From NCBI GenBank assembly GCA_041666915.1, contig JBAYFZ010000001.1, forward strand, positions 286,335 through 350,334: a stretch of 64,000 bases of DNA, written 5' to 3'. Each line of letters starts with the position of its first letter. The first letter of the stretch is position 1. This stretch comes from Minisyncoccota bacterium. GTDB lineage: Bacteria > Patescibacteriota > Minisyncoccia > Phycocordibacterales > PALSA-1337. Positions 2,542 to 26,879 of this stretch are shown piece by piece. The notes under the pieces are model-generated. The model made no database searches, had not been told where the DNA came from, and worked only from the letters and a program-made list of their open reading frames with translations. The translations under genes and the position numbers were made by a program.

Positions 2542-2623
2542 TTCTTAGAAATTAGTAATTAAAAATTAGAAATTAAGTAATTACTAGCAACAAATTCTTT
2601 AATACTTAATCATCAATCTACCC

Positions 2624-3484: not shown

Positions 3485-3513
3485 GAAAAAGGAAGCGGAA
3501 GCATCTTGTTGTT

Positions 3514-3614: not shown

Positions 3615-3615
3615 A

Positions 3616-4710: not shown

Positions 4711-4732
4711 CTTTCGAATAGTAACACAAAAT

Positions 4733-5695
4733 CTACGGAATGTACTTGTCCTTATTCACAAGATGACCATTATGATCCACAGCATAATGCATACCACCCT
4801 TACTATCAGATAAATAGAAAAGATAATTTGTCTTCGTCGGCGTCAAAACCGCTTCAATAGAATCAAGACCGGGATTAGAAATAGGCGTTGGTGGTAAACC
4901 AGTATGTTTATAAGTATTATAAGGTGAATCAATAGCGAGATCAGCCAAAGTTATGCCTTCGCCAGCTTTTTTATTGAGAACATAATAAAACGGTACATCA
5001 ACCTGTAACGGCATACCGATCTTTATCCTCTGTAACAATATTCCTGCGATAATCTTTCTATCTTTAGTACTAGAAGCTTCTTTTTCTACAATAGAAGCCA
5101 TTTTTATAACATCTTCCAAAGACTTCCCCGAAGCTTGAATAGCAAGTAACTCTGTTTTAATTTTTTGATTGAAAGTATCACGCAATTGGGCTACAACATC
5201 ATCCGGTTTAACATTTTCATAAAAATAATACGTATCTGGGAACAAATAACCTTCATAAGGCTTAGCTAGCACCAAAAAAGTTTGCAAATCAAATTTTGGA
5301 ATACTTTTTTTAATAGTCTCTCCAATACTCTTGGCAGTACTACCTTCGTAAATAGTAACTTTTATTTTAGGTAGATTTTGAATACCATTTATGAACCTGT
5401 AAGCAACCCTCAAAACTGATTGTGGTTCATCAAAGAGGTAGTCAGCCGCTTTTACACTACGATGACCAGAAAGTAATACTACAAAAATTTTGAACAGTGT
5501 AGGTGATTTTATAATATTATTTTTAGTCAAATTGTCAGCAACTTGAGATAAGTATTGTCCTGATTTTACCGTGATAATAGTTCTATCTGTAGGAAAATCT
5601 TTTGGCGCTATAGAAGCATAGATTCCAACAAAAATAATAACTGTGATTACAGCCAAAGTAGTGATGATAAGTTTTTTGGAAAAAATCTTTAACAT
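4733..5695 (-). CDS. mltG: endolytic murein transglycosylase MltG (YceG-like)
   Basis: 320 aa; N-terminal TM helix, then YceG-like motifs (PYNTYKHTGLPPTPISNPG). Confidence 0.8.
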   Translation of the reverse strand: MLKIFSKKLIITTLAVITVIIFVGIYASIAPKDFPTDRTIITVKSGQYLSQVADNLTKNNIIKSPTLFKIFVVLLSGHRSVKAADYLFDEPQSVLRVAYRFINGIQNLPKIKVTIYEGSTAKSIGETIKKSIPKFDLQTFLVLAKPYEGYLFPDTYYFYENVKPDDVVAQLRDTFNQKIKTELLAIQASGKSLEDVIKMASIVEKEASSTKDRKIIAGILLQRIKIGMPLQVDVPFYYVLNKKAGEGITLADLAIDSPYNTYKHTGLPPTPISNPGLDSIEAVLTPTKTNYLFYLSDSKGGMHYAVDHNGHLVNKDKYIP

Positions 5696-5744
5696 ATATC
5701 TTTAACATACATAAAGTCGCCTTCGCTCTGGCGAGCTTCGACGA

Positions 5745-7022: not shown

Positions 7023-7076
7023 GGGTATATTATAGCAGAGAGAGAGGGCAAGAGGCTATAAGTGCAAAGTATGGTT

Positions 7077-7190
7077 TAGTGCAAAGTGAAAAGTGCAAAA
7101 TGCAAAGTTGTAGTTATTAGTGAATAGTTAAGGAACTTAATAACTTTTCACTAAAACTTTGCATTTTGCACTTTTCACTTTTAACTAGAT
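7077..7190. repeat. large intergenic palindrome: ~27-bp arms AGTGAAAAGTGCAAAATGCAAAGTT / AACTTTGCATTTTGCACTTTTCACT separated by ~50 bp; partial copy at 53241-53266
   Basis: read directly. Confidence 0.75.
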
Positions 7191-7205
7191 GATTACGCTC
7201 ATCAT

Positions 7206-7247
7206 TTTGCACTAAAAAACATCCCGCATTGTTTCCAACACGGGATG
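7206..7247. terminator. bidirectional rho-independent terminator AAAAAACATCCCG-loop-CGGGATGTTTTTT downstream of the gene ending at 7259
   Basis: 13-bp perfect stem flanked by A-run and T-run. Confidence 0.7.
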
Positions 7248-7258
7248 TTTTTTATATG

Positions 7259-8311
7259 TTAGGCTTTTCCCTTTTCTCCTGCTGGTGAATACTTACCATC
7301 TTTATCTCTCTTGAAATACTTTGGATTTTGGAGGTTGACGATAATGGTATTTTCCTTTACGTATCTTTCTTTCATTACCTTATCAATAACTTCTTCCTTA
7401 GACATTGAACCATTTTTGACCAAGACTGAACGGATGACATCACGGACAACTCCTGGTGCATAACCCCATTCAGCTAGAGCATATAGACCACGACCGACTA
7501 GTACGAAACGAGGATCTTTGATGAGCTCATTGTGAGTAGTAGCAACGTGAGCTTTTTTATCAAACATAGTTGTAATCTGTTTTGCAACTTCACGGAAGTG
7601 AATAGGTGAACCATGCTTTCTAATAACCAAGAATGCATAATCACGCATACCCTTTGCTTTGATATTTGGAGAAGCTGAGACACCCCAATCGCCTAGTGGA
7701 TTTTTACCAATAGCTTTTGAGATCTGCAACCAGCGCTTTACAACTTCTTGATTTTTATAACGTTCAGAAACATCTTCTAAGTGACCGAGGAATTTGTTGA
7801 CCATTTCTGATTCTGGGAGTAGGTCTTGATTGTTGAGGTTGGAATACAATTTTCGGAGAGCTCCTTCAACTTCTTTGGCAAGAGCTTCATTTACATGCCA
7901 GCGATGACGGAATTCATCATCTTCCTTCATCTTACGGAAAGGTTCTCCGACTACTAGCAAAAAGAAGACATGGTTTTGTAGACTCTTGTCTTTTGAAACA
8001 TGTCCGAGGAAATCATCCTCAACGACGATACCACCTAGAGAATGAAGTAGAGTTTCAATCTCACTGAAGACTGCTTTTTCCTTTGTGTAGTCATCAGATT
8101 TGCGAATATTGGAAAGAGCGTAGTTCTCAATCTGACGAACACGTTCACGGGTAATACCGTAAATCTTGCCGATAGCATCGAGAGTCATACGCTTCACATC
8201 TTTACCCAAACCGTAACGATAAATGATAACTTCACGAGCACGGTCAGGTAGAGACGAAAGTAGTCTCTTTACGGTCTGCTTGGGCTTGAATGAAATGGTT
8301 GATGTGGCCAT
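7259..8311 (-). CDS. sigma-70 region-4-like HTH domain protein (function unknown)
   Basis: 350 aa; RAREVIIYRYGL...TLDAIGKIYGITRERVRQIENYAL resembles sigma-70 region 4. Confidence 0.5.
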   Translation of the reverse strand: MATSTISFKPKQTVKRLLSSLPDRAREVIIYRYGLGKDVKRMTLDAIGKIYGITRERVRQIENYALSNIRKSDDYTKEKAVFSEIETLLHSLGGIVVEDDFLGHVSKDKSLQNHVFFLLVVGEPFRKMKEDDEFRHRWHVNEALAKEVEGALRKLYSNLNNQDLLPESEMVNKFLGHLEDVSERYKNQEVVKRWLQISKAIGKNPLGDWGVSASPNIKAKGMRDYAFLVIRKHGSPIHFREVAKQITTMFDKKAHVATTHNELIKDPRFVLVGRGLYALAEWGYAPGVVRDVIRSVLVKNGSMSKEEVIDKVMKERYVKENTIIVNLQNPKYFKRDKDGKYSPAGEKGKA

Positions 8312-8456
8312 ATTTTTTAATTAATAAATAAGTTGAAATTACTCTTATTGTTTTATCATTCTCTTGTATTAAAGTCAATCATGTGTGGATTTACTATAAA
8401 TACAAAACTAAACTGATATGCTCACATTAACACTTTGGGGGGTATTTTGTCAATAC

Positions 8457-11450
8457 TTAGGCAACAACTATGTTTACGAGCTTATTTGGGACTACAATAA
8501 CTTTACGAATCTCCTTCCCTTCCAGCCACTTCTTAACTTCTGGAACTTCTTTGGCTAGTCTTTCTATATCTTCTTTACTTGTATCGGTCGGAGCTGTGAA
8601 TGAACCGCGAATCTTCCCACTAACCTGAACCATGATAGTAACCTCATTTTCCACCACCTTTTTGGGGTCATATACGGGCCATGGTGAGACGTGTATTGAT
8701 TTCTTGTTACCAAGTAAGGACCATAGTTCTTCAGTAAAATGTGGAGCAAATGGTGCGAGCAACTGGAGTATAGTTTCGTACTGTTTGCGACTAATAGAAA
8801 CAGATTTTTCCAATTCGTTTATGGCGATCATAAGAGCACTCACAGCTGTATTGAAACGCATTGCTTCAATATCGTCAGTGATCTTCTTTATAGTTTTATG
8901 GATAATCGCATCCACGTCTGCGCACTCTTTGGGCTGTGCCAGTTTCCCCTTCGTATCAACCTTTTCTCGAAGTTTCCAAACACGTTCAATGAATCTCCTA
9001 GTACCAACTATACTAGATGTACTCCAAGCAATCTGTTGATCAAAAGGACCCATAAACATCTCATAAAGTCTGAGGGAATCGGCTCCGTAATTTCCAACTA
9101 TTTCATCAGGATTGATAACATTTCCAAAACGTTTGGACATTTTTCTACCATCTTCCCCCATGATAAGACCGACATGTTGAAGTTTCAAAAATGGTTCTAT
9201 ATTGGAAACCACGCCGATATCATACAAAAATTTATGCCAAAAGCGAGCATAAATAAGATGTCGAGTAGCATGTTCAGCTCCACCTACATACACATCAACT
9301 GGTGACCAATACTTTTCCTTTTTTGGGTCAACGAGAACTTTGTTATTTTCTGGATCTTCATATCTCAAATAATACCAAGAGGAACCCGCCCATTGTGGCA
9401 TAGTATTGGTCTCTCTTTTGGCTGAACCTTTGCAGACTGGACACTTTACATTTACCCATTTTGAAATAGTAGCGAGTGGAGACTCTCCTGTTCCTGTAGG
9501 TTCATAAGATTTGACTCTTGGCAAAATGACAGGAAGATCTTTTTCTGGTACAGGAACAATGCCTTTTCCTTCAGGATTTATAAGAGCACAATTTTCGCAG
9601 CGAATGACTGGTATTGGTTCACCCCAATAACGTTGGCGAGAGAATACCCAATCTCGTAATTTGAATTTTGTAACCCACTGTCCACCAACCGATTCTGTTA
9701 TTTCTTTCTTAACTGATCCGGAAGATTTACCGTCAAATTTGCCGGAATTGATAAGTTTTCCATCTCCAGTAAAACAATTGGAGTTGGAGATATAAGCATT
9801 CCACATCAATTCAAAAGCAGAAAGATTCAACCAAGTCTTCATATCACTTCTTTTTATCCAAACTGTTTTATGGTTGACAACTTCTTCTTCTTTTACTATT
9901 GATTTTTCCTCATCCAATAATCTAAAAAGTACGCCTTGCCCAAAAGCATACCTATTAACATCCTTATGAGCAGCAAAGAAATGATTATGTTGTTCCATAC
10001 CTAAATCTTTTACATACTCAATATGAATGTATCCTGTTTCTTCTTTTATTTCACGAGCAGCAGCATCTTTATATGATTCACCATCATCAACTCCTCCAAT
10101 TATCCCCGAATGCCAATTAAACTTCTCCCAATCCAAACACAAAAACCTATCATTTTTCTCATCTAATAAAAGAGCGTAAATCGTTTTTCTCTTAACGGTT
10201 TCTTTATCTGGTCTAACATGATCTTTTCCTTCGCTATTAGTAGCGTAAGGTGCAATAACTTGTTTTATCTGTAACCCATACTTCTTTGCAAAAGCAAAAT
10301 CCCTCTCATCATGTGCTGGTACTGCCATGACAGCTCCTGTACCATATTCAGCCAAAACATAATCCGCTATCCAAACAGGAACCTCTTCATTGTTGACAGG
10401 ATTGACTGCTTTGACACCTTTCAACTCAACACCAGTCTTTTCTTTACCAGCATCCGTACGTTCAATATCAGTCTGTTTCTTGGTTTTATTTATATAATCC
10501 TCTACTTCTTGACGATTCTCAATATTTTTCAAAAATTCTGTCACTAACTTATGCTCTGGTGCCAAAACAACATAAGTCACACCAAATAATGTGTCTGGAC
10601 GAGTTGTATATACGTCTATTGTATCGTCATTTTTTATATTTGATTCTTGATTTTTAATTTTGAACTTTATCTCTGCTCCTTCACTTCTTCCTATCCAATT
10701 TCTCTGTAAGATCTTTATTGATTCCGGCCAATCAAGAAGTGGTATATCAAGATTTTTCTTAGCATCCAAATCATTGAGCAATCTCTCTGCGTAATCAGTA
10801 ATACGTAAAACCCACTGCCTCATAGGCTTCTTCTCCACCAACGTACCACAACGTTCACAGTGACCATCTTCTACATCTTCATTTGCCAAACCAGTTTTAC
10901 AAGAAGGACACCAATTGATAGGTTCAAACGATTCATAAGCCAAACCCTTTTTTAACAATTGCAAAAATATCCACTGAGTCCACTTATAATATTTTGGATC
11001 AGTAGTATTAACTTCACGTGACCAATCGTAATCAAAACCCATTATTTCCAATTGTTTTTTGTACCTAGCTACATTCTTTTTAACAGAATCCGCTGGATTG
11101 GTTTTTGTTTTCAAAGCATAATTCTCTGCCGGTAAACCAAAAGCATCAAATCCCATTGGATGAAGGATAGAATATCCAGCCATTCTCTTGTAACGAGAAA
11201 TGATATCGGTAGCTATATAACCTTTTGGATGACCAACATGGAGACCTTCACCAGATGGATATGGGAACATATCTAGCACATAATATTTCGGTTTCTTATT
11301 ATCTTCTTTAGATCTAAAAACCTTGGAACTCTCCCACTTCTTTTGCCACTTTTTCTCTATCTTAGCAGAATCGTAAACCGAAACTTTCGCAGTCACCTTC
11401 TTTGCAACCTTTACGGCTGTCTTTTTGGTTTTTTGGCTAGTCTTCTTCAT
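8457..11450 (-). CDS. leuS: leucyl-tRNA synthetase with an inserted Nudix-hydrolase-like domain
   Basis: 997 aa; HVGHPKG (HIGH), TTRPDTLFG editing motif, KMSKR, LRDWVFSRQRYWGEPIP; Nudix box GGVDDGESYKDAAAREIKEETGY at aa ~452-474. Confidence 0.95.
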   Translation of the reverse strand: MKKTSQKTKKTAVKVAKKVTAKVSVYDSAKIEKKWQKKWESSKVFRSKEDNKKPKYYVLDMFPYPSGEGLHVGHPKGYIATDIISRYKRMAGYSILHPMGFDAFGLPAENYALKTKTNPADSVKKNVARYKKQLEIMGFDYDWSREVNTTDPKYYKWTQWIFLQLLKKGLAYESFEPINWCPSCKTGLANEDVEDGHCERCGTLVEKKPMRQWVLRITDYAERLLNDLDAKKNLDIPLLDWPESIKILQRNWIGRSEGAEIKFKIKNQESNIKNDDTIDVYTTRPDTLFGVTYVVLAPEHKLVTEFLKNIENRQEVEDYINKTKKQTDIERTDAGKEKTGVELKGVKAVNPVNNEEVPVWIADYVLAEYGTGAVMAVPAHDERDFAFAKKYGLQIKQVIAPYATNSEGKDHVRPDKETVKRKTIYALLLDEKNDRFLCLDWEKFNWHSGIIGGVDDGESYKDAAAREIKEETGYIHIEYVKDLGMEQHNHFFAAHKDVNRYAFGQGVLFRLLDEEKSIVKEEEVVNHKTVWIKRSDMKTWLNLSAFELMWNAYISNSNCFTGDGKLINSGKFDGKSSGSVKKEITESVGGQWVTKFKLRDWVFSRQRYWGEPIPVIRCENCALINPEGKGIVPVPEKDLPVILPRVKSYEPTGTGESPLATISKWVNVKCPVCKGSAKRETNTMPQWAGSSWYYLRYEDPENNKVLVDPKKEKYWSPVDVYVGGAEHATRHLIYARFWHKFLYDIGVVSNIEPFLKLQHVGLIMGEDGRKMSKRFGNVINPDEIVGNYGADSLRLYEMFMGPFDQQIAWSTSSIVGTRRFIERVWKLREKVDTKGKLAQPKECADVDAIIHKTIKKITDDIEAMRFNTAVSALMIAINELEKSVSISRKQYETILQLLAPFAPHFTEELWSLLGNKKSIHVSPWPVYDPKKVVENEVTIMVQVSGKIRGSFTAPTDTSKEDIERLAKEVPEVKKWLEGKEIRKVIVVPNKLVNIVVA
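9816..10193 (-). other. Nudix (MutT-like) domain inserted in the CP1/editing region of LeuRS
   Basis: perfect Nudix box G-x5-E-x7-REUxEExGU plus flanking beta-strand pattern. Confidence 0.75.
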
Positions 11451-11514: not shown

Positions 11515-12537
11515 TCAATTATTAGCCCCAATTATCTTTTTCACTTCTCTATCAAAATCAGATTCAATATTTTGGTGCTTATTAAATTCCCTGTATTCAA
11601 AAATTGCCTTTGAATCAGCATCGGCTTTAGAAACACGTCCTTTTCCATCAAGGATCTTATACTCATTAAAAGAAAGAAACTTATCTACGCTTTCAGCAAA
11701 TTTTTTCATCGTAAATGTATTGCTTCTTTCAATCAAACCTTCAATATAATCAAAAAAACCTACAACCGTTCGTTCTAACTTCTTAATTTCGTTTTCTTCT
11801 AAATAATTTTTTGCAACGATAACATCAGATTGTAAGATTCTACCTACTGGTGATTTCTTCCACGTCAAAAGACCCATATGTGGTTTTTTAGAGTCTACTT
11901 TATTATAAATTATCTCTGGAGCAGTTTTACCAGTAATTGCAAAGTGAAATTTATTCTGCACCATTGCATAAAACTCATGACTGATACTGGAATCTTTATC
12001 GTAATCAACACTACATTCAGCAAAAATATCTGTTATTTGTTGGTAGATACGACGCTCACTCGCCCTAATTGAGCGAACGCGTTCAAGTAGTTCTTGAAAA
12101 TAGTCTGCATTAAATAACTTTCTACCCTGTTTCAAACGCTCATCATCAAGCACAAACCCTTTAATAATAAATTCACGAAGCACCTGTGTTGCCCAGATAC
12201 GAAAATGTGTAGCTCTTTTAGAATTTACTCTATACCCTACTGCAATAATCGCATCTAAATTGTAATAGGTTAGACTACGCTCAATATCTCTCCCTCCTTC
12301 ATTTTGAACTTGTAAGAAATCCTTACAAGTTGAATCCTTCACTAATTCACCAATTTCATAAACATTCTTCAAATGAAGCGTGATATTTTGTGGTGTAGTA
12401 TCAAAAAGCTCAGCTATCAACTTCTGGGTTAGCCAAATCATTTCTCCTTCTATACGGACTTCGACTTTAGGATCACCATTTTCTGTTGAAAAAATGAGAA
12501 ACTGAGCAGTAGTTTGTAGAAAATTAGTCTTCTTCAT
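11515..12537 (-). CDS. RhuM-family virulence/DNA-binding protein
   Basis: 340 aa; YYNLDAIIAVGYRVNSKRATHFRIWATQVLREF is characteristic of the RhuM family. Confidence 0.8.
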   Translation of the reverse strand: MKKTNFLQTTAQFLIFSTENGDPKVEVRIEGEMIWLTQKLIAELFDTTPQNITLHLKNVYEIGELVKDSTCKDFLQVQNEGGRDIERSLTYYNLDAIIAVGYRVNSKRATHFRIWATQVLREFIIKGFVLDDERLKQGRKLFNADYFQELLERVRSIRASERRIYQQITDIFAECSVDYDKDSSISHEFYAMVQNKFHFAITGKTAPEIIYNKVDSKKPHMGLLTWKKSPVGRILQSDVIVAKNYLEENEIKKLERTVVGFFDYIEGLIERSNTFTMKKFAESVDKFLSFNEYKILDGKGRVSKADADSKAIFEYREFNKHQNIESDFDREVKKIIGANN

Positions 12538-15880: not shown

Positions 15881-16897
15881 TTATGCGATTCTTTCTCGCA
15901 TTTGTTCGAGGAAACTCACCACGCCCACATTCCGATACTGCGGAGTGGTCTTGTCACCCACATTTACAGGCATTGATACCCTAGGATACCTTCCCAGGAG
16001 CTCTCCTACCATGATTTCACGTCCCGTATCCCTTCCTATACGATCAAAGAGGCTAATCGCCATCTCTAGAAAGAAGGCGGATAACTCTCGAGCGTTGTCG
16101 GTAGGCAGACTTGTCCATTTCTCAATCATGCCGAATGGCAAGATATATGGAAATGCACAACTATGTCCTTCGACTGTCTGAATTGGTGCAAAGCTGTGAG
16201 CTTTAGGTTCACCAACTACACGTCCGCATCCTGGCATGAATGGAATAAGGTCTCGATCAGCGATCCATTCGACTAGATTCTCAAAGGCGTGAACAATTAC
16301 GAGCTCGCCTTGGAATGCTGGCTGAATGACAGTCCTTGCTCCGTTATCACAGAATCCAAGGATAACAGTTGCAATTTCAACACCTCGATTTTCAAGTTCC
16401 TTAAGAATATAAAGGCAAGTGTTACCCTTGAACACTCCTTCCTTAGCCAGAATTACTGGACGATAAGAAATCTTCCTAGCCAGCTCATCGAACTGACGAT
16501 CCAAATAATCAAATCCAGGACGGGGACCGTACCCGAGCATTTTTCCGTCCGTATCAAACAGTCGGTTAATGCTTAGGTTCAGTTTTTCATCACCGGAATT
16601 CAGGTCAGACATTTCGGAACATGTGACCAGGACTGCGTGCCGGTTGTTACCAGCAATACGACCATGAACTTGCTCCCAGATATTAATTCTGAGCTCATTC
16701 TTATCGATAGGACAAATCGTGACGTTTCCTAACGCTCTGACTACCCTTTCGAGAAGACTCTGGCGCAGTTGCTCAAACATCGGATCTTCTTGGCTTGGGA
16801 CCAGGAGACCCTTTGAGCGGAATGATTGAATACTGTTTGCTACGTCAAAGGAAACCACGCAGGTTCCCTGACCAAGTGCCGAATTGGCAGATTGCAT
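15881..16897 (-). CDS. hypothetical protein, first gene of the GC-rich block (possible degenerate PRTase-like fold)
   Basis: 338 aa; GC about 53 %; PVILAKEGVFKGNT loosely resembles a PRTase motif; no confident assignment. Confidence 0.45.
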   Translation of the reverse strand: MQSANSALGQGTCVVSFDVANSIQSFRSKGLLVPSQEDPMFEQLRQSLLERVVRALGNVTICPIDKNELRINIWEQVHGRIAGNNRHAVLVTCSEMSDLNSGDEKLNLSINRLFDTDGKMLGYGPRPGFDYLDRQFDELARKISYRPVILAKEGVFKGNTCLYILKELENRGVEIATVILGFCDNGARTVIQPAFQGELVIVHAFENLVEWIADRDLIPFMPGCGRVVGEPKAHSFAPIQTVEGHSCAFPYILPFGMIEKWTSLPTDNARELSAFFLEMAISLFDRIGRDTGREIMVGELLGRYPRVSMPVNVGDKTTPQYRNVGVVSFLEQMRERIA

Positions 16898-16985: not shown

Positions 16986-17303
16986 TTATTTTTGCTCACC
17001 TTTCATTCTGTCGATCATCATTTTGTAGCCTCCACAACCTTCTTTCAGCCAACGATTAATTTTTGTGATCGTTACTGGAGACTCACCTGATTCTTCTTGT
17101 ATTTGAGAAAATGGAACACCTGCATCTAGTTTCTTTGCAACCTCCCAACGCATAGCAAATTCACGAAGATCTCTTTCACTCATAAGATCTCTGAAAAAAG
17201 CCTTGAGCTCGTCTTCATTCTTGAGCGACAAAAACACCTTGAGCAAGTCTGGAGACTTTTGCTCTAACTCAGACCATATTCCATTTTTTTCTTCATCTGT
17301 CAT
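16986..17303 (-). CDS. TrpR-like DNA-binding protein, YerC/YecD family
   Basis: 105 aa; LREFAMRWEVAKKLDAGVPFSQIQEESGESPVTITKINRWLK matches the YerC/YecD TrpR-like pattern. Confidence 0.6.
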   Translation of the reverse strand: MTDEEKNGIWSELEQKSPDLLKVFLSLKNEDELKAFFRDLMSERDLREFAMRWEVAKKLDAGVPFSQIQEESGESPVTITKINRWLKEGCGGYKMMIDRMKGEQK

Positions 17304-17387
17304 ATTTTTTACTATTATACCATAAAAAAGAGCGGTAACCTTGTTTCCAAAGTTACCGCCCGTGTGTCCATTCTATGGACCAAGGAA

Positions 17388-17705
17388 CTAATTACCGCGA
17401 ATCTTTGCGATCGCGAGGATCGTATCGCCGGATTCGACGATGTCATCGACACTGGCTTCCTGGCCGTTGCGTTGAATCTCGCAACGTTCCAAGTTTTTGA
17501 TGCCGATGACTGCGAAGAGTGCGCCAATCGTGATTTTCTTCGTGAGCGGGACCTCCTGGATTTCTCCAGGGATCTTGCCCACGCTCGCAATGGCGTCCTT
17601 CTGGATGACTGTGCAATCGGGGAGATTTGTCGTCTCGGGCCGATCCAACACTTCCACATGCGGCCGTTCAGCAGTCGCCGCCAACTGATTCATTCTGTTT
17701 TTCAC
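17388..17705 (-). CDS. ubiquitin-like beta-grasp protein (ThiS/MoaD-like) ending ..AKIRGN
   Basis: 105 aa; C-terminal IQRNGQEASVDDIVESGDTILAIAKIRG fits the ThiS/MoaD beta-grasp pattern; lies immediately downstream of the E1-like gene. Confidence 0.5.
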   Translation of the reverse strand: MKNRMNQLAATAERPHVEVLDRPETTNLPDCTVIQKDAIASVGKIPGEIQEVPLTKKITIGALFAVIGIKNLERCEIQRNGQEASVDDIVESGDTILAIAKIRGN

Positions 17706-17732
17706 TGTATTTTCCTTTCAAGGTTCAGAGGT

Positions 17733-18419
17733 TTAGTAGTTCTTGCTGAGAACGATCAGCGGCGAGAGCGAAACGATCGCCTCGTTCGCGAACTTTTTGT
17801 TATTCGCAAAGTTGATCATTGTGAACACCGCCATGCCAGCGAGAGTTGCCACTGTCGGAGCGATTGCTCGCCTCGTGCAGGGGCTTTCTTCCGCCTCAGC
17901 ATCAGAATACAACGTTTTTTCATACGCCGCAATCTGATTTGGCATTGCTGGTTTGATCGCATAAATGCGACCGCCTTCGGCTTCCATCCGTGTCTCAATC
18001 ATCAAGTCAACCTTGAGCTGATAGCGGACAGACGATTCCCAGATCGTCTTGCGGCTCTCCATTGTGTCGGTGAGCACGAAAACGATTCCTTTCAGCGATC
18101 CCTTTGTAAACTTCTTGGAGACCGCTTTGATCTTGATGCCGGTGCCGGCTTCGACCGCCTTAGCCAGCGCGTCGACCTTCTTTTTTCCGACATCCGCAAG
18201 TCCGAAGACCTGATTTGGCAGATTGTGATTCTCCACCTCATCGAAGTCATAGACCGTGATGTCTTTGCACCCCATCTTGGCCAAGAGCCAGACGATGTAG
18301 GAGCCGGTTGCACCGACGCCGATCACCGTGATTGGTTTCTTGAAGTTTGACGGGGCGAAGATGTCGAGCTGTCGCCAGTAGTCAGGTTCGCTTGTCGGCT
18401 TATTTTTTGCGGCCGCCAT
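17733..18419 (-). CDS. ThiF/MoeB/E1-like adenylyltransferase (Ubl-activating enzyme-like)
   Basis: 228 aa; Rossmann ITVIGVGATGSYIVWLLAKMG...DFDEVENHNLPNQ typical of E1-like enzymes. Confidence 0.85.
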   Translation of the reverse strand: MAAAKNKPTSEPDYWRQLDIFAPSNFKKPITVIGVGATGSYIVWLLAKMGCKDITVYDFDEVENHNLPNQVFGLADVGKKKVDALAKAVEAGTGIKIKAVSKKFTKGSLKGIVFVLTDTMESRKTIWESSVRYQLKVDLMIETRMEAEGGRIYAIKPAMPNQIAAYEKTLYSDAEAEESPCTRRAIAPTVATLAGMAVFTMINFANNKKFANEAIVSLSPLIVLSKNY

Positions 18420-19260
18420 ATCCCCCTCCTTTCGAATGGAATGAACCGTTCTTGACCTTGGCCTTGATCTCGTCGGCGATCGTCTTGCGACGGGTATCGT
18501 CTCCGAGGTGCATAAGCCAGGGGCAGTCGGTGATCTTCACCTTCTGCGTATAGTCGAAGAAATCGAAGACGCACTTGCCTCCTCGAGTGAAGATGCCGCG
18601 AATGAAGAACGGATTATGAGCGAAGAGCTCCATCTGTTCATCGTCCTGGCCCGACGGCTCGGTCATGTCTCCCGGGTGCAGATGCCCCCAGAAAAGCATG
18701 GAGTTGAGGACCGACTTGTTCGCGGGGTCCTGCTTCAGCATGTCCGTGTAGAACTTGCCGATGCTCCCCTGATCGAATTCGCAGTGCGCTCCGCTCACCT
18801 GTTGGTTGAAGAGGAACACTTTGCCGATGAGATACCTGTCGCCGTCCAGTTTTTGAACGGTGCCAAGCCACCCCACCTCGTCATTGCCCGCAGCTTCCAT
18901 GATGTAGTGCGTATCGGTGTACGCCTCGAGAGACAGAAGAATGGTCGGGATTTGCATCTCGGTCATCACTTCGATCTTCGCTTCCGCCTCATGCGGAACC
19001 AACGGCTTTATTGCTTCTTCGGCAAAGCCTGGACCGGTGTAGATGTCAGACTGATTTTTCACGTTTTGCTCCTTTCTTGGTTTGTTGAAGTTCGCACTCT
19101 CGGACTCCGAAGCCGCCGTTCCCTTCCAGGAACTGGATGACGTACTCCGGTTCTCCCTGTGCCCATTCTTCGGGAGGTTTGAGGCGGGTGATACGACAGC
19201 GTTTACCGTCGTTGCCGGTATACCCCGATGTGCCGCGATTCGTGTAAACACAAACCACAC
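18400..19260 (-). CDS. JAB/MPN (JAMM) metallopeptidase; true start may be internal
   Basis: 286 aa; E...HLHPGDMTEPSGQDD = E / HxH-x7-S-x2-D JAMM motif; 20-nt overlap with the E1 gene. Confidence 0.75.
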   Translation of the reverse strand: MWFVFTRIAAHRGIPATTVNAVVSPASNLPKNGHRENRSTSSSSWKGTAASESESANFNKPRKEQNVKNQSDIYTGPGFAEEAIKPLVPHEAEAKIEVMTEMQIPTILLSLEAYTDTHYIMEAAGNDEVGWLGTVQKLDGDRYLIGKVFLFNQQVSGAHCEFDQGSIGKFYTDMLKQDPANKSVLNSMLFWGHLHPGDMTEPSGQDDEQMELFAHNPFFIRGIFTRGGKCVFDFFDYTQKVKITDCPWLMHLGDDTRRKTIADEIKAKVKNGSFHSKGGGYGGRKK

Positions 19261-19271
19261 CCATCTGGTAT

Positions 19272-20177
19272 TTATGATTCGGCGTTTTCATTCCGCTTAC
19301 CTCCCTTCTTCTTTTTGGCAACTGGCCAGTTGAATATTTCCGAATACGGACGATACTGATCTGAGCACTCATAGCTCTTGAGGTACTGGATGCATACCGA
19401 TACAGCTGCAGCGTATTTGTGCTCCGCAATCATGTGAGGCAGAACCTCTTGGATATTGCCGAGACAAGGCACGCCGTACGCTTCAATATGTGGATGGTGA
19501 TAGCCATCCGGGGTGCGAGTAAGATTCATCATTCTCACCGCCCCATCCTTGCCGACAGAATCGATCGCGATCTTGAACCGGCCAATGTCATAATCAACCT
19601 GTCGGTAGTTTATGAAAATGGGACCGGTATAAGCCACGATTTTTTTGCCGACAACCTCTAGTCGCTCGATGTCTGGATGCTTCATCAGTTGCTCAAATTC
19701 GTCACCGAACCGAGCAAGTGAAGCTTCATCAGTCCCAGCAACAACTTGTAGCTGTTGCTGTTTTTCTTCCAAGCGACGAAGGAAACCTACTAGCTGTTCT
19801 TGGCATTTCTCAATACCTGCACGCAACTTCGTAGTCTCCTGCTTCAGCTCGCGCACACGCTCGGCCTTGCGGTTGTAGCCGCAGAGCTCCATGTATTTGC
19901 GCTTCAGAATGTCTTGTGAGTTCGCTTTGGGTTTCCCTTTGGCGCTCGTATGACCGTTTTGGCTGAAATGTCCCAGATAGACGCCTTGGTAATCCGTTCG
20001 AACTTTCGTGACTTGGCTTTTGGCCACGCCGAGAATCTCGCAGAGTTCACCAAGGTCTTCCATTTGAACACCGACACATGCGTCACCGTTGATACGGAGA
20101 CGAGTGGTCTTGAGTCCAGCGAGACTTTCGCCTCGTAGACTCCGTTGCGGGAACGCAACAATGGTTCCAGTCTTCAT
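19272..20177 (-). CDS. E2 (UBC)-like ubiquitin-conjugating enzyme with N-terminal HTH/coiled-coil extension
   Basis: 301 aa; HHPHIEAYGVPCLGNI resembles the E2 HPN-x-G-x-C-L active-site motif, preceded by a beta-rich segment. Confidence 0.55.
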   Translation of the reverse strand: MKTGTIVAFPQRSLRGESLAGLKTTRLRINGDACVGVQMEDLGELCEILGVAKSQVTKVRTDYQGVYLGHFSQNGHTSAKGKPKANSQDILKRKYMELCGYNRKAERVRELKQETTKLRAGIEKCQEQLVGFLRRLEEKQQQLQVVAGTDEASLARFGDEFEQLMKHPDIERLEVVGKKIVAYTGPIFINYRQVDYDIGRFKIAIDSVGKDGAVRMMNLTRTPDGYHHPHIEAYGVPCLGNIQEVLPHMIAEHKYAAAVSVCIQYLKSYECSDQYRPYSEIFNWPVAKKKKGGKRNENAES

Positions 20178-20212
20178 TATTTGACCTCTTGACTTTCTTG
20201 ACGTGGTTTTGA

Positions 20213-20455
20213 CTAGTCCTTCAGGCAGACGTCAACCGCCCGAAGCACTTTTTGACCTTGCTCTCCATCCAGAGAGCCAACAAGGAAGGTAACGTTCAGA
20301 CCCTGAGCAAGCTCAAAGTTGTTACGTGTTGAAGCGACGACAAATTTTTGTCCGTCGTGCTCGCTTTGCTGATCTTTGACCCGCACCTTCCAGACCGGCT
20401 TGTCGCGAGAAGCATTTCTGCCCACCACGAATCCTGCATGGCGTTTATGGACCAT
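20213..20455 (-). CDS. hypothetical small protein upstream of the E2-like gene
   Basis: 80 aa ORF in the same GC-rich block and strand; an alternative overlapping ORF 20296-20556 looks spurious. Confidence 0.3.
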   Translation of the reverse strand: MVHKRHAGFVVGRNASRDKPVWKVRVKDQQSEHDGQKFVVASTRNNFELAQGLNVTFLVGSLDGEQGQKVLRAVDVCLKD

Positions 20456-20590
20456 ATGACTTGCTCCTTTGCTGGATAAACCAGCGATTTCAATGACCTT
20501 GCGGCAACGCGCCGCGTGTTCCTAAGGCAATCTTTCAGCCTATGGAATCTGAGCACAACCTAACATAATTAATAGGTTGTGTCAATAATC

Positions 20591-21469
20591 TTACAATGTC
20601 GAATTATAGGATTCCTTAATTAAATCAAAAAGATAATTTACGTCAGTATCGATATCAAATTTTACCATCCCACTATATCCCCATTCATTGCTAGTTATAT
20701 CTTTGACCATCTTCTGCTCATCGCTCGGATATTTTGGATCTCTAAGTAGCACCTGAATCCAAGTCTTTCTAAACTCAAATCTCGTGAAGCTTTTTGTGGT
20801 GCGGTAAGTAATACCAGTCTTTTGTCCGAGTTTTTCCTCAACAGACGCCAATTTCAGAATCAAATCACGGATTTCGTTAAACTTTTTCTGCATTTCCGGA
20901 GTCGTGATTCCAGTGTGATAGGAAAGATTGTATTCTTCTTTTCCCGTTTCAATAGATTGAGCTTTCTTCCCATTTGTCTTCTCTGGCATAGGACTATACT
21001 GAGGTTCTACATGTAGCACGTCTCCATCGTATAAAGTATAGGTTTTCAATTCAACATTAGACATTGTCTGGACCGCAGCTTTTATATATCTATCAAATCC
21101 CTGAGCAATTAAAATCACACGCGGCTGATCCCAGCTCACATGACCTTTATCACCAAGACGATCTTTTACCAGAAGTTCAAAATGCTTCTTATTTTTAAGT
21201 AACCAGTTCAAGTAAAACAAACCCTGAGCTAGCACTTCTTCGTTCTCTTTCCATTTATATTCGATAATGACCGGAGAATCGTTTTCATCAATACCAAGTG
21301 TATCAATCCTTCCGTCAGTAGTTTGGTATTCCTTTGCAAGAAATCTTACCCCGAGAATTTCCTCCAAATTTTCAGCAAAAAAATCACGAAGTTCAAATTC
21401 ATTTCCAAAACCATCACGTTTAAGACTGAGTTGGTTCGCCTTTCTTTGATTTATCTTAAATATCGGCAT
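20591..21469 (-). CDS. PD-(D/E)xK nuclease-like N-terminal domain protein with uncharacterised C-terminal domain
   Basis: 292 aa; GRIDTLGIDENDSPVIIEYKWKEN contains the D..E.K motif. Confidence 0.45.
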   Translation of the reverse strand: MPIFKINQRKANQLSLKRDGFGNEFELRDFFAENLEEILGVRFLAKEYQTTDGRIDTLGIDENDSPVIIEYKWKENEEVLAQGLFYLNWLLKNKKHFELLVKDRLGDKGHVSWDQPRVILIAQGFDRYIKAAVQTMSNVELKTYTLYDGDVLHVEPQYSPMPEKTNGKKAQSIETGKEEYNLSYHTGITTPEMQKKFNEIRDLILKLASVEEKLGQKTGITYRTTKSFTRFEFRKTWIQVLLRDPKYPSDEQKMVKDITSNEWGYSGMVKFDIDTDVNYLFDLIKESYNSTL

Positions 21470-21517: not shown

Positions 21518-23278
21518 TTATAGCTCTGAATACTCGAAGCCGAGGAAAGGCTTTGCTCTTGTAAACTCAGCCTTCTTAACTTTTTCTATATCAAATTCAA
21601 AATCTTTTTGAATGCTTTCAAATTCATCCTTATTAATAGTTAGGATGTATTGGAATTGATGTTTTTTTGAAAGGTTGAAAAGATAATTGAGAGAACGAAC
21701 CATATCATCGCGACCAGTAGATGCAAAAATATTGTCATGTATGAGAAATTTAGGGTGTCTCTCAGAAGTGATTTTATTTACCATTAGCAATGTGTCGTAT
21801 ATGAATGTTTTTATCCGATTAATACCGGAGCTTCCATCCAATTTGATTCTATAATCAAATTCAACAAAACTAGCAGAAGATTCGTTAACATTAATTTGAA
21901 ACTGACAGTGCTTGTTCCCCGCTATATAGTCATGCATTTTCTTTAAATCATCTTCGAATGCAGATACTGTAGATTGTATTTTAAAGATTGTCTGCTCGAG
22001 TTCTTCAATTAAACCTTCCTTCTTCTTTTTAAGGGACTTCTGTTGGGATATTTTAGCCTGCAATATTTCATATGTTTGGGAAAGCTTCTCAAGCTCCATG
22101 TTTTTTTCTCGCTCAAGTTTAACGGCTTCTTTAATGCCATTTATGACTTCTTTTGCTTCCGTCTTGGAGTAGATTTTTGCTATTTCATTATCAATTCTTG
22201 AAATTTGTTCATCGACTGCAGTAATCTCAACATTAAGCTCCTTAAGTTTTTCACCCATTAGCGTATTCTGGAAATCGTCGACTTGTTTTTTAAATTCAAC
22301 AACCTGATCGAATGACTTCTGAACCATATCACCAAGCCCGGTCTTAAAATGATTGTATATGATTTGAACCTGTTTTGTATTTATTTTCTCAAGCTGTGGA
22401 AGAGATTTTATCTTTTTTACTAGATATTCCTTGCTTGCTTTTGTAGTCACTAACTTTTCAAGCTGAATTTGAAGATCGTTAAGGCGATCTTTCAGTTGCA
22501 CCATCCCCTCTGATGGATGTAACTCTTCGATGGCCAAATTAAGCTTTTCTATACTGTCCTTCAGCTCATTTATGTGAGAAGCAACCTCTTTTACCTCAAT
22601 TCCAGCATTTCTAAAGTCCTGCCTCAAATCTGCAGTAGTTTTAGATACATTTTTTAGATCTTGGGAAACCTTTTTTATTTTTTCGATAATATCTAAATTG
22701 ATTTGAAAAAGATAAAAATGTGGCTTTAGTAAATCCTCAAAGGAACTGACTGAAGAGCTCCGGTGTGGCTTCAAGATATCGCTATATAGGCTGTCTTCTT
22801 CTCTTATGAGAATTGATAGCAGGCTCCTGAAGGATGGCTTATCAGGATTGGTGTCATCAAGAAGGAGGTACGACAAATATTTCTTTGCTTCTTCAAGTTT
22901 ATCAAAGGTTTTTTCATCATCGTCGACAACAATAATAATTGGATCATTCTCGACTCGATTGCGTTTGATTGTAACTTTTCTGATTCGATTTTTAGACTCA
23001 ACTTCTATATCTAAGCATATGTATATTTTTGGATTGAGACTAATATCAGGTATTTTTGTGATTCTACTTTCATCTGCCCTTTTAAGAAAACAATAATTTA
23101 TAGCCTCGATAAGCAATGATTTACCCACACCATTCATCTTTTCTCGTTCTTTTTTATTTTCTATGTTCTCAGATTTTTCTCCAACAATAAAATTCAAGCC
23201 ACGGTCAAATTCTATGGATTTAAGTTCCTTTTTGTTGAATTCTTTTGGCTCAAATGATAATCGTCGAATTGTAATCAT
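21518..23278 (-). CDS. coiled-coil ABC/SMC-like ATPase (ABC-3C-type ATPase candidate)
   Basis: 586 aa; Walker A MNGVGKSLLIEAINY at N-terminus, long coiled coil, C-terminal PKFLIHDNIFASTGRD (Walker B/D-loop). Confidence 0.75.
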   Translation of the reverse strand: MITIRRLSFEPKEFNKKELKSIEFDRGLNFIVGEKSENIENKKEREKMNGVGKSLLIEAINYCFLKRADESRITKIPDISLNPKIYICLDIEVESKNRIRKVTIKRNRVENDPIIIVVDDDEKTFDKLEEAKKYLSYLLLDDTNPDKPSFRSLLSILIREEDSLYSDILKPHRSSSVSSFEDLLKPHFYLFQINLDIIEKIKKVSQDLKNVSKTTADLRQDFRNAGIEVKEVASHINELKDSIEKLNLAIEELHPSEGMVQLKDRLNDLQIQLEKLVTTKASKEYLVKKIKSLPQLEKINTKQVQIIYNHFKTGLGDMVQKSFDQVVEFKKQVDDFQNTLMGEKLKELNVEITAVDEQISRIDNEIAKIYSKTEAKEVINGIKEAVKLEREKNMELEKLSQTYEILQAKISQQKSLKKKKEGLIEELEQTIFKIQSTVSAFEDDLKKMHDYIAGNKHCQFQINVNESSASFVEFDYRIKLDGSSGINRIKTFIYDTLLMVNKITSERHPKFLIHDNIFASTGRDDMVRSLNYLFNLSKKHQFQYILTINKDEFESIQKDFEFDIEKVKKAEFTRAKPFLGFEYSEL

Positions 23279-24294: not shown

Positions 24295-25056
24295 TTAGAT
24301 TTTTTGAAACACAAATAGATGCTCGTGCATTATTAGCAAAAAATTTGATTCCTTTGATTTTGTAACCCAGAATCCAGTAGCTTTACAGTTGAATTGTCTC
24401 TTTATGATGTCTTCTTTGAGAAGCAATCCTGATTTCAAAAAACGATCCATCACTTTGTATGCGAGTGGCTGGTACAATTTTTTTCGCCTCGTATCTCCCA
24501 TAAGGATTGCACAAAACTTGCCGGGTTTTAGAACCCTATAAAATTCTCTTGCAACTTTTTCCATCTCATCACAAAAGACATCAATATCACTAATGTTTGA
24601 TAGGTCGTCTACTAACTTTCCTTCACTGTACTTAATGATATCTACATATGGTGGATGAGTGAGTACGAAGTCTACAGTATTATCTTTTATTTTTGATAGG
24701 TTACGTGAATCCCACTTGAATCCTCTTTGCCACGCTTTATTATCAACCTTAAAATTTAGAGATTTCTTTGTACGATCAAGTGCTACTTGATTCACGTCAG
24801 AATAAATAATATTTCTATTCAGAATCCTTGCCTCAATTGCTGTAGTACCACCACCAATCATTGAATCAAGTAAAACATCACCTTCTTTTGAGTATCGAAG
24901 AATGAGATTTCGAGCTACTTCTGGGGACCAGTTACCCCGCCAATCTGATGTATGAGTTGCCCAATTACCACGACGAGGAAAAGCCCAGACCGTTGTACAT
25001 TCTAGTTCGAATTCTTCCGGGTGCAGTTTTAATTCTGTAGCTTTCTTTATTGCCAT
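24295..25056 (-). CDS. DNA methyltransferase (N6-adenine/N4-cytosine class), second MTase of the GATC R-M system
   Basis: 253 aa; motif I DSMIGGGTTAIEA and motif IV THPPY. Confidence 0.8.
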   Translation of the reverse strand: MAIKKATELKLHPEEFELECTTVWAFPRRGNWATHTSDWRGNWSPEVARNLILRYSKEGDVLLDSMIGGGTTAIEARILNRNIIYSDVNQVALDRTKKSLNFKVDNKAWQRGFKWDSRNLSKIKDNTVDFVLTHPPYVDIIKYSEGKLVDDLSNISDIDVFCDEMEKVAREFYRVLKPGKFCAILMGDTRRKKLYQPLAYKVMDRFLKSGLLLKEDIIKRQFNCKATGFWVTKSKESNFLLIMHEHLFVFQKI

Positions 25057-25062
25057 GGGTAT

Positions 25063-25920
25063 TTACCATTCTAGTTCATTTAGCGCACCGGATTCGAGCA
25101 TGTTTAGGTTGAATACATACTCGTTATGGTTATATGTTTCTTCAAGTGGTCTCTTGGTTGTGTTCCAGCCTAATCCATCAGTTATCCAGATGAAATCAAT
25201 ATCCTGAGACTTCAGTTCATCATTTAGACTTTTAAATTCTCCACAAACAGCTTTTAATTTTGAGCCACCGCCATTGTAAAAGTTTGCTTCAAATAATTTA
25301 AGCTTTTTATTGCTTGTATTATAAATTGCAAAATCAAAGCTTCTTTCTGACTTGTCTACTTTTATATCAAAACCCCATTTAGCCTTTATCGCACTAGGAC
25401 GTGCCTGTGCAAGACATTCATATCCATTTTTATTACAAAAATCAGTGAGAAATGTTCCTATTATTTCTTCCATCAGAGTACCGCCACGATTCTTACGACC
25501 ATTACTGTCGAGACCGACTTCTACGCCCATAACATAATCAACGAGATTCTTTATACCGTCTTTTTGAAATAGTTTTGCAAGACCTGATTTGCTTAGGAAT
25601 TCAAAATATTTGTCAGCATCCTTTTCTTTACCAGAAAAATCGAAGAATTCGGAGTTCTTTGTAGCCTTATCAAATATTTCTAGTTTGTTTTCTCTAACCG
25701 CTAATAGAACAGGTAGAGCTTTTATTATGTCTGGGTTTGAGCTATATAGTTTTACAAATTCCTCTTTTAAATTTTCCTTACCGAGCAGGTAGTTAAGCTT
25801 ATTTAGAGCTATCTCTAATTCTGAACTGTTAGAAAATACCTTGTTCCAATTGACGAAATAATCCCAAGTTTTAATTGAGCTTTTGAATGTTGTTATTAAG
25901 TTATTAAAATCTTTTTTCAT
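25063..25920 (-). CDS. type II restriction endonuclease, DpnII/MboI family (GATC-specific)
   Basis: 285 aa; lies between two MTase genes in MboI-like order; family assignment from recollection of DpnII-like sequences, not from a search. Confidence 0.6.
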   Translation of the reverse strand: MKKDFNNLITTFKSSIKTWDYFVNWNKVFSNSSELEIALNKLNYLLGKENLKEEFVKLYSSNPDIIKALPVLLAVRENKLEIFDKATKNSEFFDFSGKEKDADKYFEFLSKSGLAKLFQKDGIKNLVDYVMGVEVGLDSNGRKNRGGTLMEEIIGTFLTDFCNKNGYECLAQARPSAIKAKWGFDIKVDKSERSFDFAIYNTSNKKLKLFEANFYNGGGSKLKAVCGEFKSLNDELKSQDIDFIWITDGLGWNTTKRPLEETYNHNEYVFNLNMLESGALNELEW

Positions 25921-25922
25921 GT

Positions 25923-26879
25923 TTAGTAATTTGTTATGAGAACCTCGGTGATTTTTCCTCTACCTGATCCTTTTGAGTTAATGGCTCGGCCAGCCTCAAC
26001 CTTGTTAATTCGTATACCTTTGAAACCTGAATAAATCTTATTTATGAATGGCGTGTCTGAGTTCGAGAGCATTACGTAGCAACCTCGCTTATTCAATTCT
26101 AGGAACGTATCTCTGAGTTCTATTTGTTCTTTATCAAGGAATGATTCTGCTGTGTACGATGTGAACGATGCCGTCTTGCTTACTGGATAATATGGAGGAT
26201 CAAAGTATATAAAATCACCTTTTTTTGCAGTCTTGAGTACCGCTTTGTAATCTTGGTGCTTTATATCAATGTCCTGTAGTGCCTTGGAAACCTTTCTTAA
26301 ATTATCCTGATCGCAAATCAAAGGATTAGTATGTTTGCCGTAAGGGACATTAAATCCACCTTTACTATTCACTCTGTACATTCCATTGAAACAAGTTCGA
26401 TTCAAAAAGATAAATCTAGAAGCAACATCAACATCATTAAGTGTTTTCCAATCTAGCGCACGAATCTTCAAAAAATAATCTTTATCAATATCATGCTTCT
26501 TGAGTGCAACAATTAATTTCTCAACATCGTTTTTAATGACATTATAGGTTGTAACAAGCTCTTTATTTAAATCAGATAGGTATCCTTCTGCTGGAAGAAG
26601 GTCAAAAAACACAGCACCACCACCGACAAATGGTTCATAATATTTTCCTGTCTTAATATCAAACTTTTCTGGGGGATATAAATTTAATCCACGAAATTGT
26701 GCAAGTAACTGACGCTTGCCGCCCACCCACTTTATAAAAGGCTTTGGTTTTTCTGAAATAATTCTTGCAACATCGTCAAAAAGATTTGTTTTATCGGCAA
26801 GAAGAAACGCTCTATGTGCAAAAATAGCATTTACATCAAACTTTGATTGTATTTCCTTAATAGCTTGCTGTGTAGTCAT
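25923..26879 (-). CDS. Dam-family N6-adenine DNA methyltransferase (GATC)
   Basis: 318 aa; KWVGGKRQLL, EPFVGGGAVFF, NRTCFNGMYRVNSKGGFNVPYG, DPPY. Confidence 0.9.
   Translation of the reverse strand: MTTQQAIKEIQSKFDVNAIFAHRAFLLADKTNLFDDVARIISEKPKPFIKWVGGKRQLLAQFRGLNLYPPEKFDIKTGKYYEPFVGGGAVFFDLLPAEGYLSDLNKELVTTYNVIKNDVEKLIVALKKHDIDKDYFLKIRALDWKTLNDVDVASRFIFLNRTCFNGMYRVNSKGGFNVPYGKHTNPLICDQDNLRKVSKALQDIDIKHQDYKAVLKTAKKGDFIYFDPPYYPVSKTASFTSYTAESFLDKEQIELRDTFLELNKRGCYVMLSNSDTPFINKIYSGFKGIRINKVEAGRAINSKGSGRGKITEVLITNY

Follow-up and report, generated by a model that had tools for sequence, protein, structure and literature searches.

Bacterial systems that resemble eukaryotic ubiquitination combine a ubiquitin-like protein (Ubl) with an activating enzyme (E1), a conjugating enzyme (E2) and often a peptidase. 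In the Type II Bil system, up to nine residues come after a conserved Gly of the Ubl BilA; in Ensifer aridi, BilC cuts BilA after Gly97 and thereby removes Ala98, a residue that blocks ATP binding, and this cut is needed for adenylation (PMC10557695). The idea that a bacterial Ubl is trimmed to expose its Gly is thus already known and has a direct experimental precedent. Here we analyzed a 64,000-nucleotide window (the whole stretch of DNA studied, positions 286,335 to 350,334 of contig JBAYFZ010000001.1) from a metagenome-assembled genome (MAG) of Candidatus Paceibacterota, which belongs to the Candidate Phyla Radiation (CPR). A first-pass annotation of the window had drawn attention to a Ubl gene at positions 17388-17705 whose product ends one residue beyond a Gly, and had suggested that an adjacent JAMM peptidase could trim it. 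We found that this gene is part of a compact operon family of CPR bacteria and phages, that the Ubls of this family have a conserved Asn immediately after an invariant Gly, and that the same site recurs in precursors built like polyubiquitin and in Ubl fusions. We estimate a probability of roughly 0.7 that the JAMM peptidase cuts between Gly104 and Asn105 and that the Ubl is then attached to targets through Gly104 by the E1 and E2.

The operon is located on the minus strand and has the order 80-amino acid (aa) protein, E2-like protein, 81-aa protein, JAMM peptidase, 228-aa ThiF-type E1, Ubl and terminator. The four genes on which the argument turns are the following.

19272-20177, minus strand: E2-like protein of 301 aa, with an N-terminal alpha/beta domain (residues 1-71) and a long helix (87-147) ahead of a UBC-like core (151-267).
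18400-19062, minus strand: JAMM/JAB metallopeptidase of 220 aa, starting at the GTG at 19062 behind a Shine-Dalgarno sequence; the NCBI protein MFA6554204.1 has the same 220 aa.
17733-18419, minus strand: E1-like adenylyltransferase of 228 aa, in which one ThiF domain covers residues 30-208 (Pfam ThiF, 3.7e-23).
17388-17705, minus strand: Ubl precursor of 105 aa, in which a disordered N-terminal region of ~31 aa precedes the beta-grasp core (residues 38-100) and the tail reads I-R-G104-N105.

The JAMM peptidase is in the same operon as the Ubl, but the two genes are not adjacent, as had been stated, the E1 gene being located between them.

The Ubl open reading frame (ORF) starts at a GTG codon and ends in LAIAKIRGN; the NCBI model of the gene starts at an internal ATG and has 101 aa (MFA6554202.1). 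The ending AKIRGN with a single Asn past Arg-Gly, which the first-pass annotation had reported, is read directly from the codons, given here in plus-strand letters together with the putative processing site.

17397-17399, gcg: Arg103.
17394-17396, acc: Gly104.
17391-17393, att: Asn105.
17388-17390, cta: TAG stop.
17391-17396, minus strand: codons of Gly104 and Asn105, the putative JAMM processing site, with the cut placed between the two by analogy with BilA/BilC.

The proposed beta-grasp fold is supported by an AlphaFold2 model based on a 15-sequence alignment, which confidently predicts a beta-beta-alpha-beta-beta core (residues 38-100, predicted local distance difference test (pLDDT) score ~89) behind a stretch, residues 1-31, that is predicted to be disordered (pLDDT <50). 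A Foldseek search of the PDB with this model gave Mth1743, SAMP1, NEDD8, TtuB and SUMO as the top matches and also matched MoaD and ubiquitin. The best of them, Mth1743, is a 70-residue archaeal beta-grasp protein annotated just as a structural-genomics protein, and identity to ubiquitin was 13-15% in structural alignments. No match to the protein was found in Pfam, NCBIfam, PHROGs or PADLOC; Pfam ThiS matches occur only among distant members of the family, which by profile is nearest to ThiS. The product of ORF 17388-17705 is thus predicted to be a beta-grasp Ubl with one residue after the Gly. The N-terminal extension had been called unusual. It is real, and partly conserved in close homologues as a PHVEVLD-like stretch, but it is common in the family: 32 of the 69 single-domain members have at least 25 residues before the core and 22 have at most 10. 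Diverse N-terminal additions are general among bacterial conjugation Ubls (PMC11601603).

A search of 5.8 billion proteins for close relatives showed that the close family is rare, with 14 homologues of the Ubl and 19 of the E2-like protein. Thirteen of the 14 Ubl homologues end in IRGN or IRGNQ, and the remaining one diverges over its last ~20 residues. With the close-family alignment as query, a single GTDB genome was found, a Saccharibacteria MAG, and the viral contigs searched gave no match; a broad alignment of 30 Ubl sequences was too diverse for a locus search. A wider Ubl profile search of 1.84 billion representatives resulted in 221 proteins, and in the 160 proteins examined we scored 271 Ubl domains. 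The Gly, whose conservation in homologues the first-pass annotation had made its test, is present in all 271 of them, and the residue that precedes it is Lys or Arg in 250. The short extensions past the Gly, for which the annotation had proposed to look, are also found: the tails have 0-13 residues and are variable, and just one of the 134 C-terminal domains stops at the Gly. Distant members of the operon family end in RIRGNIEIVAEIRIN, KIKGNG or KIRGNTN. The invariance of the Gly, the variation of the tails in length and sequence and the JAMM partner encoded in the related loci together indicate that the Gly is probably the reactive residue, which the peptidase would expose.

The residue following the Gly had been treated as a plain extra residue, and this view could not be maintained. 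Position +1 is Asn in 239 of the 271 domains (88%), Ala in 18 (7%), Gly in 12 (4%) and Ser in one. Conservation collapses past this position: the column entropy is 0.65 bits at +1 but 3.6 bits at +2. Of the 134 terminal domains, about half finish exactly at the +1 residue. Judged from these alignments the family signature is (I/V)-(K/R)-G-N, and the Asn is neither a chance nor an incidental addition. Asn is found at +1 in 113 of 134 domains at protein ends and in 126 of 137 at internal junctions between domains. Since it is equally conserved in both settings, a role as the first residue after the cut (P1'), recognized by the peptidase, fits the alignments better than a role as a mere cap.

A conserved Asn may also be taken for the reactive residue itself. 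The Asn would then be kept as the C-terminus, the E1 would activate the alpha-carboxylate of Asn105, and longer tails would be cut after the Asn; activation could proceed through an ordinary acyl-adenylate or by an MccB-like route with a succinimide, giving a non-canonical linkage. The MccA peptide (MRTGNAN) has an obligatory Asn at its C-terminus, which MccB adenylates, forming a succinimide; MccB shares with the operon family an E1-like adenylating enzyme and a conserved Asn as the C-terminal residue of the substrate. The prevalence of Asn at +1, the many terminal domains that end there and the appearance of MccB among the solved structures that the E1 matched best, over the Rossmann segment at residues 29-88 only (E 1.5e-5), are all in agreement with this possibility. 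However, the invariant residue is the Gly and not the Asn. The main argument against an MccB-like route is that 12% of the domains have Ala, Gly or Ser at +1, residues incapable of Asn side-chain chemistry; such replacements, which set the family apart from the obligatory Asn of MccA, argue against an essential role of the side chain. Moreover, MccB acts on a peptide of just 7 aa, which it holds with an N-terminal clamp domain, and has neither E2 nor JAMM as a partner, whereas the substrate in the window is a folded beta-grasp protein and its E1 lacks the clamp: only ~28 residues precede the Rossmann fold, into which an MccB-type peptide clamp does not fit. Among protein families the E1 matches ThiF best, the invariant Cys of the E2 suggests a thioester relay, and we know of no precedent for a JAMM peptidase that cuts after Asn. 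We therefore consider it unlikely that the Asn is kept as the reactive end, and very unlikely that it is chemically active in the stricter sense that the E1 adenylates the C-terminal Asn and that a succinimide or iso-Asn serves the E2 in making a non-canonical linkage or gates conjugation. Were the Asn chemically active, the CPR/phage family would represent a ubiquitin-type system in which conjugation does not run via Gly.

We next consider the enzymes that would act on the Gly104 end. The JAMM protein has an intact zinc-site motif E...HxHx7SxxD that is conserved across the family (alignment A7). Numbered on a longer ORF of 286 aa, its residues are E128, H193xH195, S203 and D206, the central part reading H193-L-H-PGDMTEP-S-GQ-D206. 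This 286-aa ORF was rejected as the gene model: the homologues have 220-225 aa, the Shine-Dalgarno sequence and GTG at 19062 mark the start of a 220-aa gene, the 81-aa gene is separate from it, and the NCBI models agree on both. The E2-like protein has the features expected of the UBC/E2 class, a UBC fold and a catalytic-type Cys soon after an H-P-N-like motif, here H-P-H ... C; its invariant residues are H228-P229 and Cys238-L-G-N. The E1 is the only cassette protein with an NCBI name other than 'hypothetical' ('ThiF family adenylyltransferase'). Its homologues have 223-238 aa and share the invariant residues G34, G36, D58, K81, D118, R123, R144 and Cys181 (alignment A6), so that nucleotide-binding positions are conserved, and Cys181 sits at the position of the ThiF crossover-loop Cys. 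In PADLOC it matched the models for E1-E2 proteins (Cap2) of cyclic-oligonucleotide-based antiphage signaling systems (CBASS) in the Rossmann segment only, at residues ~27-110.

On the preferred reading, cleavage of the Gly104-Asn105 bond of the Ubl precursor by the JAMM peptidase would be followed by adenylation of the exposed Gly104 carboxylate by the E1, which probably acts as a homodimer like ThiF/MoeB. The E1 may take the Ubl onto its invariant Cys181, and the Ubl would be passed to Cys238 of the E2, so that the relay would involve E1 Cys181, E2 Cys238 or both. The E2 would join the Ubl to lysines of a target picked by its variable N-terminal domain, and the JAMM peptidase may also be able to reverse the modification.

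The resemblance of the E1 to ThiF raises a different possibility, namely that the Ubl serves as a ThiS/MoaD-type sulfur carrier, that the E1 makes a C-terminal thiocarboxylate on it for the synthesis of a small molecule, and that the JAMM peptidase only matures the carrier. Such carrier-maturing JAMM peptidases have precedents in QbsD, which acts on QbsE, and Mec+, which acts on CysO. The ThiS matches of distant family members, the ThiF-like size and family matches of the E1, and the small archaeal Mth1743 as the top structural match of the Ubl agree with a carrier. Yet the E1 scored far under the NCBIfam cut-offs for ThiF (60.6 bits versus 159), and no sulfurtransferase, rhodanese or biosynthetic gene was found in the operon. 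ThiS/MoaD carriers have a free Gly-Gly end and a ThiF/MoeB partner and work with no E2, whereas the window Ubl ends in R-G-N and a Cys-bearing E2-like partner is conserved in all loci except some phage ones. The poly-Ubl and Ubl-fusion proteins described below, the carriage by phages and the location in a defence island are ill-suited to a cofactor pathway. Taken together, a sulfur-carrier function strikes us as highly improbable.

The core order E2-JAMM-E1-Ubl recurs in unrelated contexts (loci L001/L011, L002/L003, L004/L005, L007, L016 and L018), and the family ranges over CPR bacteria (Paceibacterota and Saccharibacteria) and phage contigs. A homologous JAMM gene is present in every related locus that has DNA upstream of the Ubl gene, and an E2-like protein with the invariant Cys accompanies the Ubl in all loci, some phage ones excepted. 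In locus L006 (positions 550-8819 of a 1.16-Mb metagenome contig) a single JAMM-E1-Ubl set is followed by eight consecutive E2 paralogues, the N-terminal parts of which differ while the HPH...C motif is kept in at least five of the eight. This array looks like a set of diversified target-recognition subunits. Together with the variable N-terminal half of the E2 proteins, it suggests that the E2 chooses the target.

In the wider family, 91 proteins contain 2-4 Ubl units arranged head-to-tail, with KGN and a linker of 1-5 residues at every junction, and another group of relatives contains two Ubl units followed, directly after IKGN, by an unrelated domain of ~130 aa. The second architecture is found in phage-borne di-Ubl fusions (IMG/VR contigs L012-L015; P0076, P0090, P0097 and others, alignment A5), in which each unit ends in IKGN and the C-terminal domain of ~130 aa is variable, often Cys-rich and then helical; its layout resembles that of eukaryotic ubiquitin-fusion genes. 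By their neighbours, these architectures belong to the same operon type as the window cassette. Locus L018 has genes for a protein of 531 aa with a match to the E2 profile in its C-terminal half (5e-36), for a JAMM (9e-53), for an E1 (7e-84) and for a tri-Ubl, and on the IMG/VR phage contigs L012-L016 homologues of the JAMM and E1 adjoin the di-Ubl fusion. Locus L016 has a minimal E2 of 132 aa, a JAMM, an E1 and a Ubl of 76 aa ending in MIKGN, beside an integrase. A tblastn search of GenBank phages with the di-Ubl P0056 gave no match. By sequence, the G-N site that separates the units of poly-Ubl and fusion proteins is the same site as that at the Ubl end, and these proteins look like cleavable precursors. 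Eukaryotic polyubiquitin and ubiquitin-fusion genes likewise have head-to-tail repeats with a processing motif, a short final cap and units in front of an unrelated domain; their motif is R-G-G rather than K/R-G-N, and the presumed processing enzyme here is the JAMM encoded in the operon itself. In yeast UBI4, the last Gly-Gly is followed by a single additional Asn.

Multi-unit Ubls also bear on the possibility that the Ubl is never conjugated and instead acts as a non-covalent adaptor or regulator, its GN end being a binding motif for the E1, E2 or JAMM. Some bacterial Ubls with several beta-grasp domains assemble into filaments (PMC11601603), and conjugation in the present family is inferred rather than observed. 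Nevertheless, the invariant terminal Gly is conserved together with an intact adenylating E1, an E2 that bears a Cys and a JAMM that looks active, which is hard to explain without covalent chemistry, and we regard a purely non-covalent role as extremely improbable.

Returning to the reading in which Gly104 is exposed and conjugated, several points weigh against it. All steps of the pathway are inferred. A simple cap model leaves the conservation of the Asn unexplained. Because RGN forms the end of the search profile, members without the motif are somewhat under-sampled in the 271 domains, and a further 10 Ubl domains went unscored as their alignments stopped before the motif. The JAMM protein has no Pfam match, and it was identified by its motif and by a JAB match in PADLOC that is weak (1.3e-3). 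Finally, a role in defence is deduced from the neighbourhood of the operon, and relatives are also found inside phage contigs.

Comparison with the described systems indicates that the operon would work like Bil but is not a member of it, and that it is also distinct from Bub, type II CBASS and the PRTRC/6d cassettes. The first-pass annotation had proposed to align its Ubl with Bil-type and 6E-type homologues; the operon is neither of the two types by its E1, gene order, unfused genes, conserved Cys residues and lack of DUF6527. With Type II Bil it shares the Ubl, E2, JAMM and E1 functions, a location in defence islands and a conserved Gly with a short tail, of exactly one residue (Ala98) in E. 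aridi BilA. However, the Bil E1 consists of an inactive and an active adenylation domain and a Cys domain, whereas the window E1 has the one ThiF domain, and the gene order is Ubl-E2-DUB-E1 (DUB, deubiquitinase) in Bil as opposed to E2-(81 aa)-JAMM-E1-Ubl. These two differences, and the finding that phmmer, run against all PDB chains with the E2 or JAMM as query, gave nothing related at E <= 10 (the presence of the E. aridi Bil structures among these chains being unverified), are the reasons for not assigning the operon to Bil. In addition, the tails of Type II BilA are described as non-conserved (PMC10557695), unlike the +1 position here, and the E2 of Type II Bil (CEHH/6C operons) has a CEHH motif in place of H-P-H ... 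C. Type I Bil likewise uses a Ubl, E2, JAMM and E1 in phage conflict and conjugates via a C-terminal Gly (bioRxiv 10.1101/2023.09.04.556158), but its BilA, which contains two beta-grasp domains, has the Gly as its very last residue, no internal cleavage-type motifs between the domains are described, and its E1 is multidomain. More generally, where Bil and Bub Ubls have several domains, these are described as architectural elements from which dimers and filaments form, and not as cleavable repeats (PMC11601603).

Bub (6E/DUF6527) shares Ubl/E1/E2 conjugation and processing of a precursor by a peptidase, BubCD cleaving BubAB (PMC11601596). Its distinctive features are fused proteins (Ubl-E2, and JAB-E1 or E2-E1), the DUF6527 serine protease BubE, and Cys-less E1 and E2 proteins with oxyester intermediates. 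In the window operon the genes are separate, E1 Cys181 and E2 Cys238 are invariant, and no Pfam DUF6527 match was found among the encoded proteins. In type II CBASS (Cap2/Cap3), an E1-E2 fusion acts on a cGAS/DncV-like nucleotidyltransferase (CD-NTase); the window E1 matches Cap2 models only partially, and a Pfam scan revealed no nucleotidyltransferase in the operon. The 6d/PRTRC cassettes have separate small Ubl, JAB, E1-like and E2-like genes on mobile elements, as here (PMC1779556). However, the 6d E2 has no His upstream of the Cys, while the window E2 keeps a His-Pro, and 6d operons encode a characteristic alpha-helical protein. The window E1 scored 37.3 bits against the PRTRC ThiF model TIGR03736 (cut-off 144.75), and the other PRTRC models of NCBIfam gave no match to the operon. 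A 228-aa E1-like protein, 33% identical to the window E1 (phrog_15670), is encoded by Flavobacterium phage FpV4 (L009, 63878-64564) and by crAss-like Bacteroides phages. Near the FpV4 gene no Ubl, JAMM or E2 of the operon family was found; these phage genes were therefore set apart from the family and treated as a different system, in which the protein probably has another ThiF-type function. In the literature, the coverage of which is thinner for CPR bacteria, we found no description of the operon family or of a G-N Ubl motif.

The remaining features of the cassette are as follows.

20554-20581, minus strand: perfect 9-bp inverted repeat CACAACCTA-N10-TAGGTTGTG, just upstream of the first cassette gene.
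20213-20455, minus strand: first cassette gene, encoding 80 aa, with no homologue found in related loci.
19046-19291, minus strand: 81-aa gene between those of the E2 and the JAMM, with a Shine-Dalgarno sequence and an ATG at 19291 and with no Pfam match.
17330-17361, minus strand: intrinsic-terminator-like hairpin with a 14-bp stem followed by TTTTTTAT, just past the Ubl stop codon, marking the end of the operon.

The 81-aa protein is homologous to the N-terminal extension of the E2 homologue P0024, and its gene is missing from most related cassettes; the homology indicates that this gene moves around within the operon type. The inverted repeat at 20554-20581 may be an operator for a regulator. 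A promoter scan of the operon strand gave no site overlapping it. A TTGACA sequence is present upstream of the operon, but no acceptable -10 hexamer lies at 16-18 nt from it, and we therefore do not claim a promoter. Two genes downstream, a YerC/TrpR-like gene (16986-17303) and a gene for a 338-aa protein (15881-16897), were rejected as cassette members, because the terminator intervenes and no homologue of either accompanies the cassette elsewhere.

The operon forms a mobile, GC-rich cassette within a defence island. Its GC content is 52% (50-56% across positions 17350-20500) compared to ~36% in the flanks, whereas in other genomes the cassette has the same GC content as its surroundings, and the copy in the window therefore looks recently acquired. 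No flanking direct repeats and no tRNA or structured-RNA integration site were found around it. Its neighbours encode an integrase, a PDC-S18 protein and an LmuB-like/PDC-M68B protein. The genes of the defence/mobile-element island, at 11515-12537, 20591-21469, 21518-23278 and 24295-26879, include those for a RhuM-family protein, the PDC-S18 protein and the LmuB-like/PDC-M68B ATPase; likely DNA methyltransferase and restriction genes are also present, judged from their translations only. The island setting and the Bil precedent make a role in phage-host or mobile-element conflict likely, and the carriage of relatives by phages leaves the direction of this conflict open.

Two further observations concern the surroundings of the cassette. 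Between positions 13554 and 14214, just upstream of the integrase gene and in a stretch with no convincing gene, a 36-nt sequence occurs three times at spacings of 302 and 323 nt, the copies being 75-83% identical to the first; tRNA and Rfam searches of this stretch gave no match. The leucyl-tRNA synthetase gene at 8457-11450 (minus strand, 997 aa) encodes a NUDIX domain at residues 421-537, just past the editing domain (Pfam 2.3e-10, above the gathering score).

What is new here is a compact operon family of CPR bacteria and phages whose proteins are mostly unannotated, together with a conserved Asn after the Gly and with precursors, polyubiquitin-like or fused to other domains, in which the same site recurs. 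If the proposed pathway is correct, the family would stand beside Bil, Bub and type II CBASS as a further bacterial and phage ubiquitination-like family. Its minimal, ThiF-sized E1 paired with a Cys-bearing E2 would bear on the origin of the E1-E2 relay from sulfur-carrier enzymes. The conserved Asn predicts either an S1' specificity of the JAMM peptidase or a gate on activation. Poly-modifier and modifier-fusion gene architectures have been thought to be mainly eukaryotic (PMC1949818); in this family the modifier would be encoded as single units, as poly-Ubl precursors and as Ubl fusions, each with a sharply defined (I/V)-(K/R)-G-N site.
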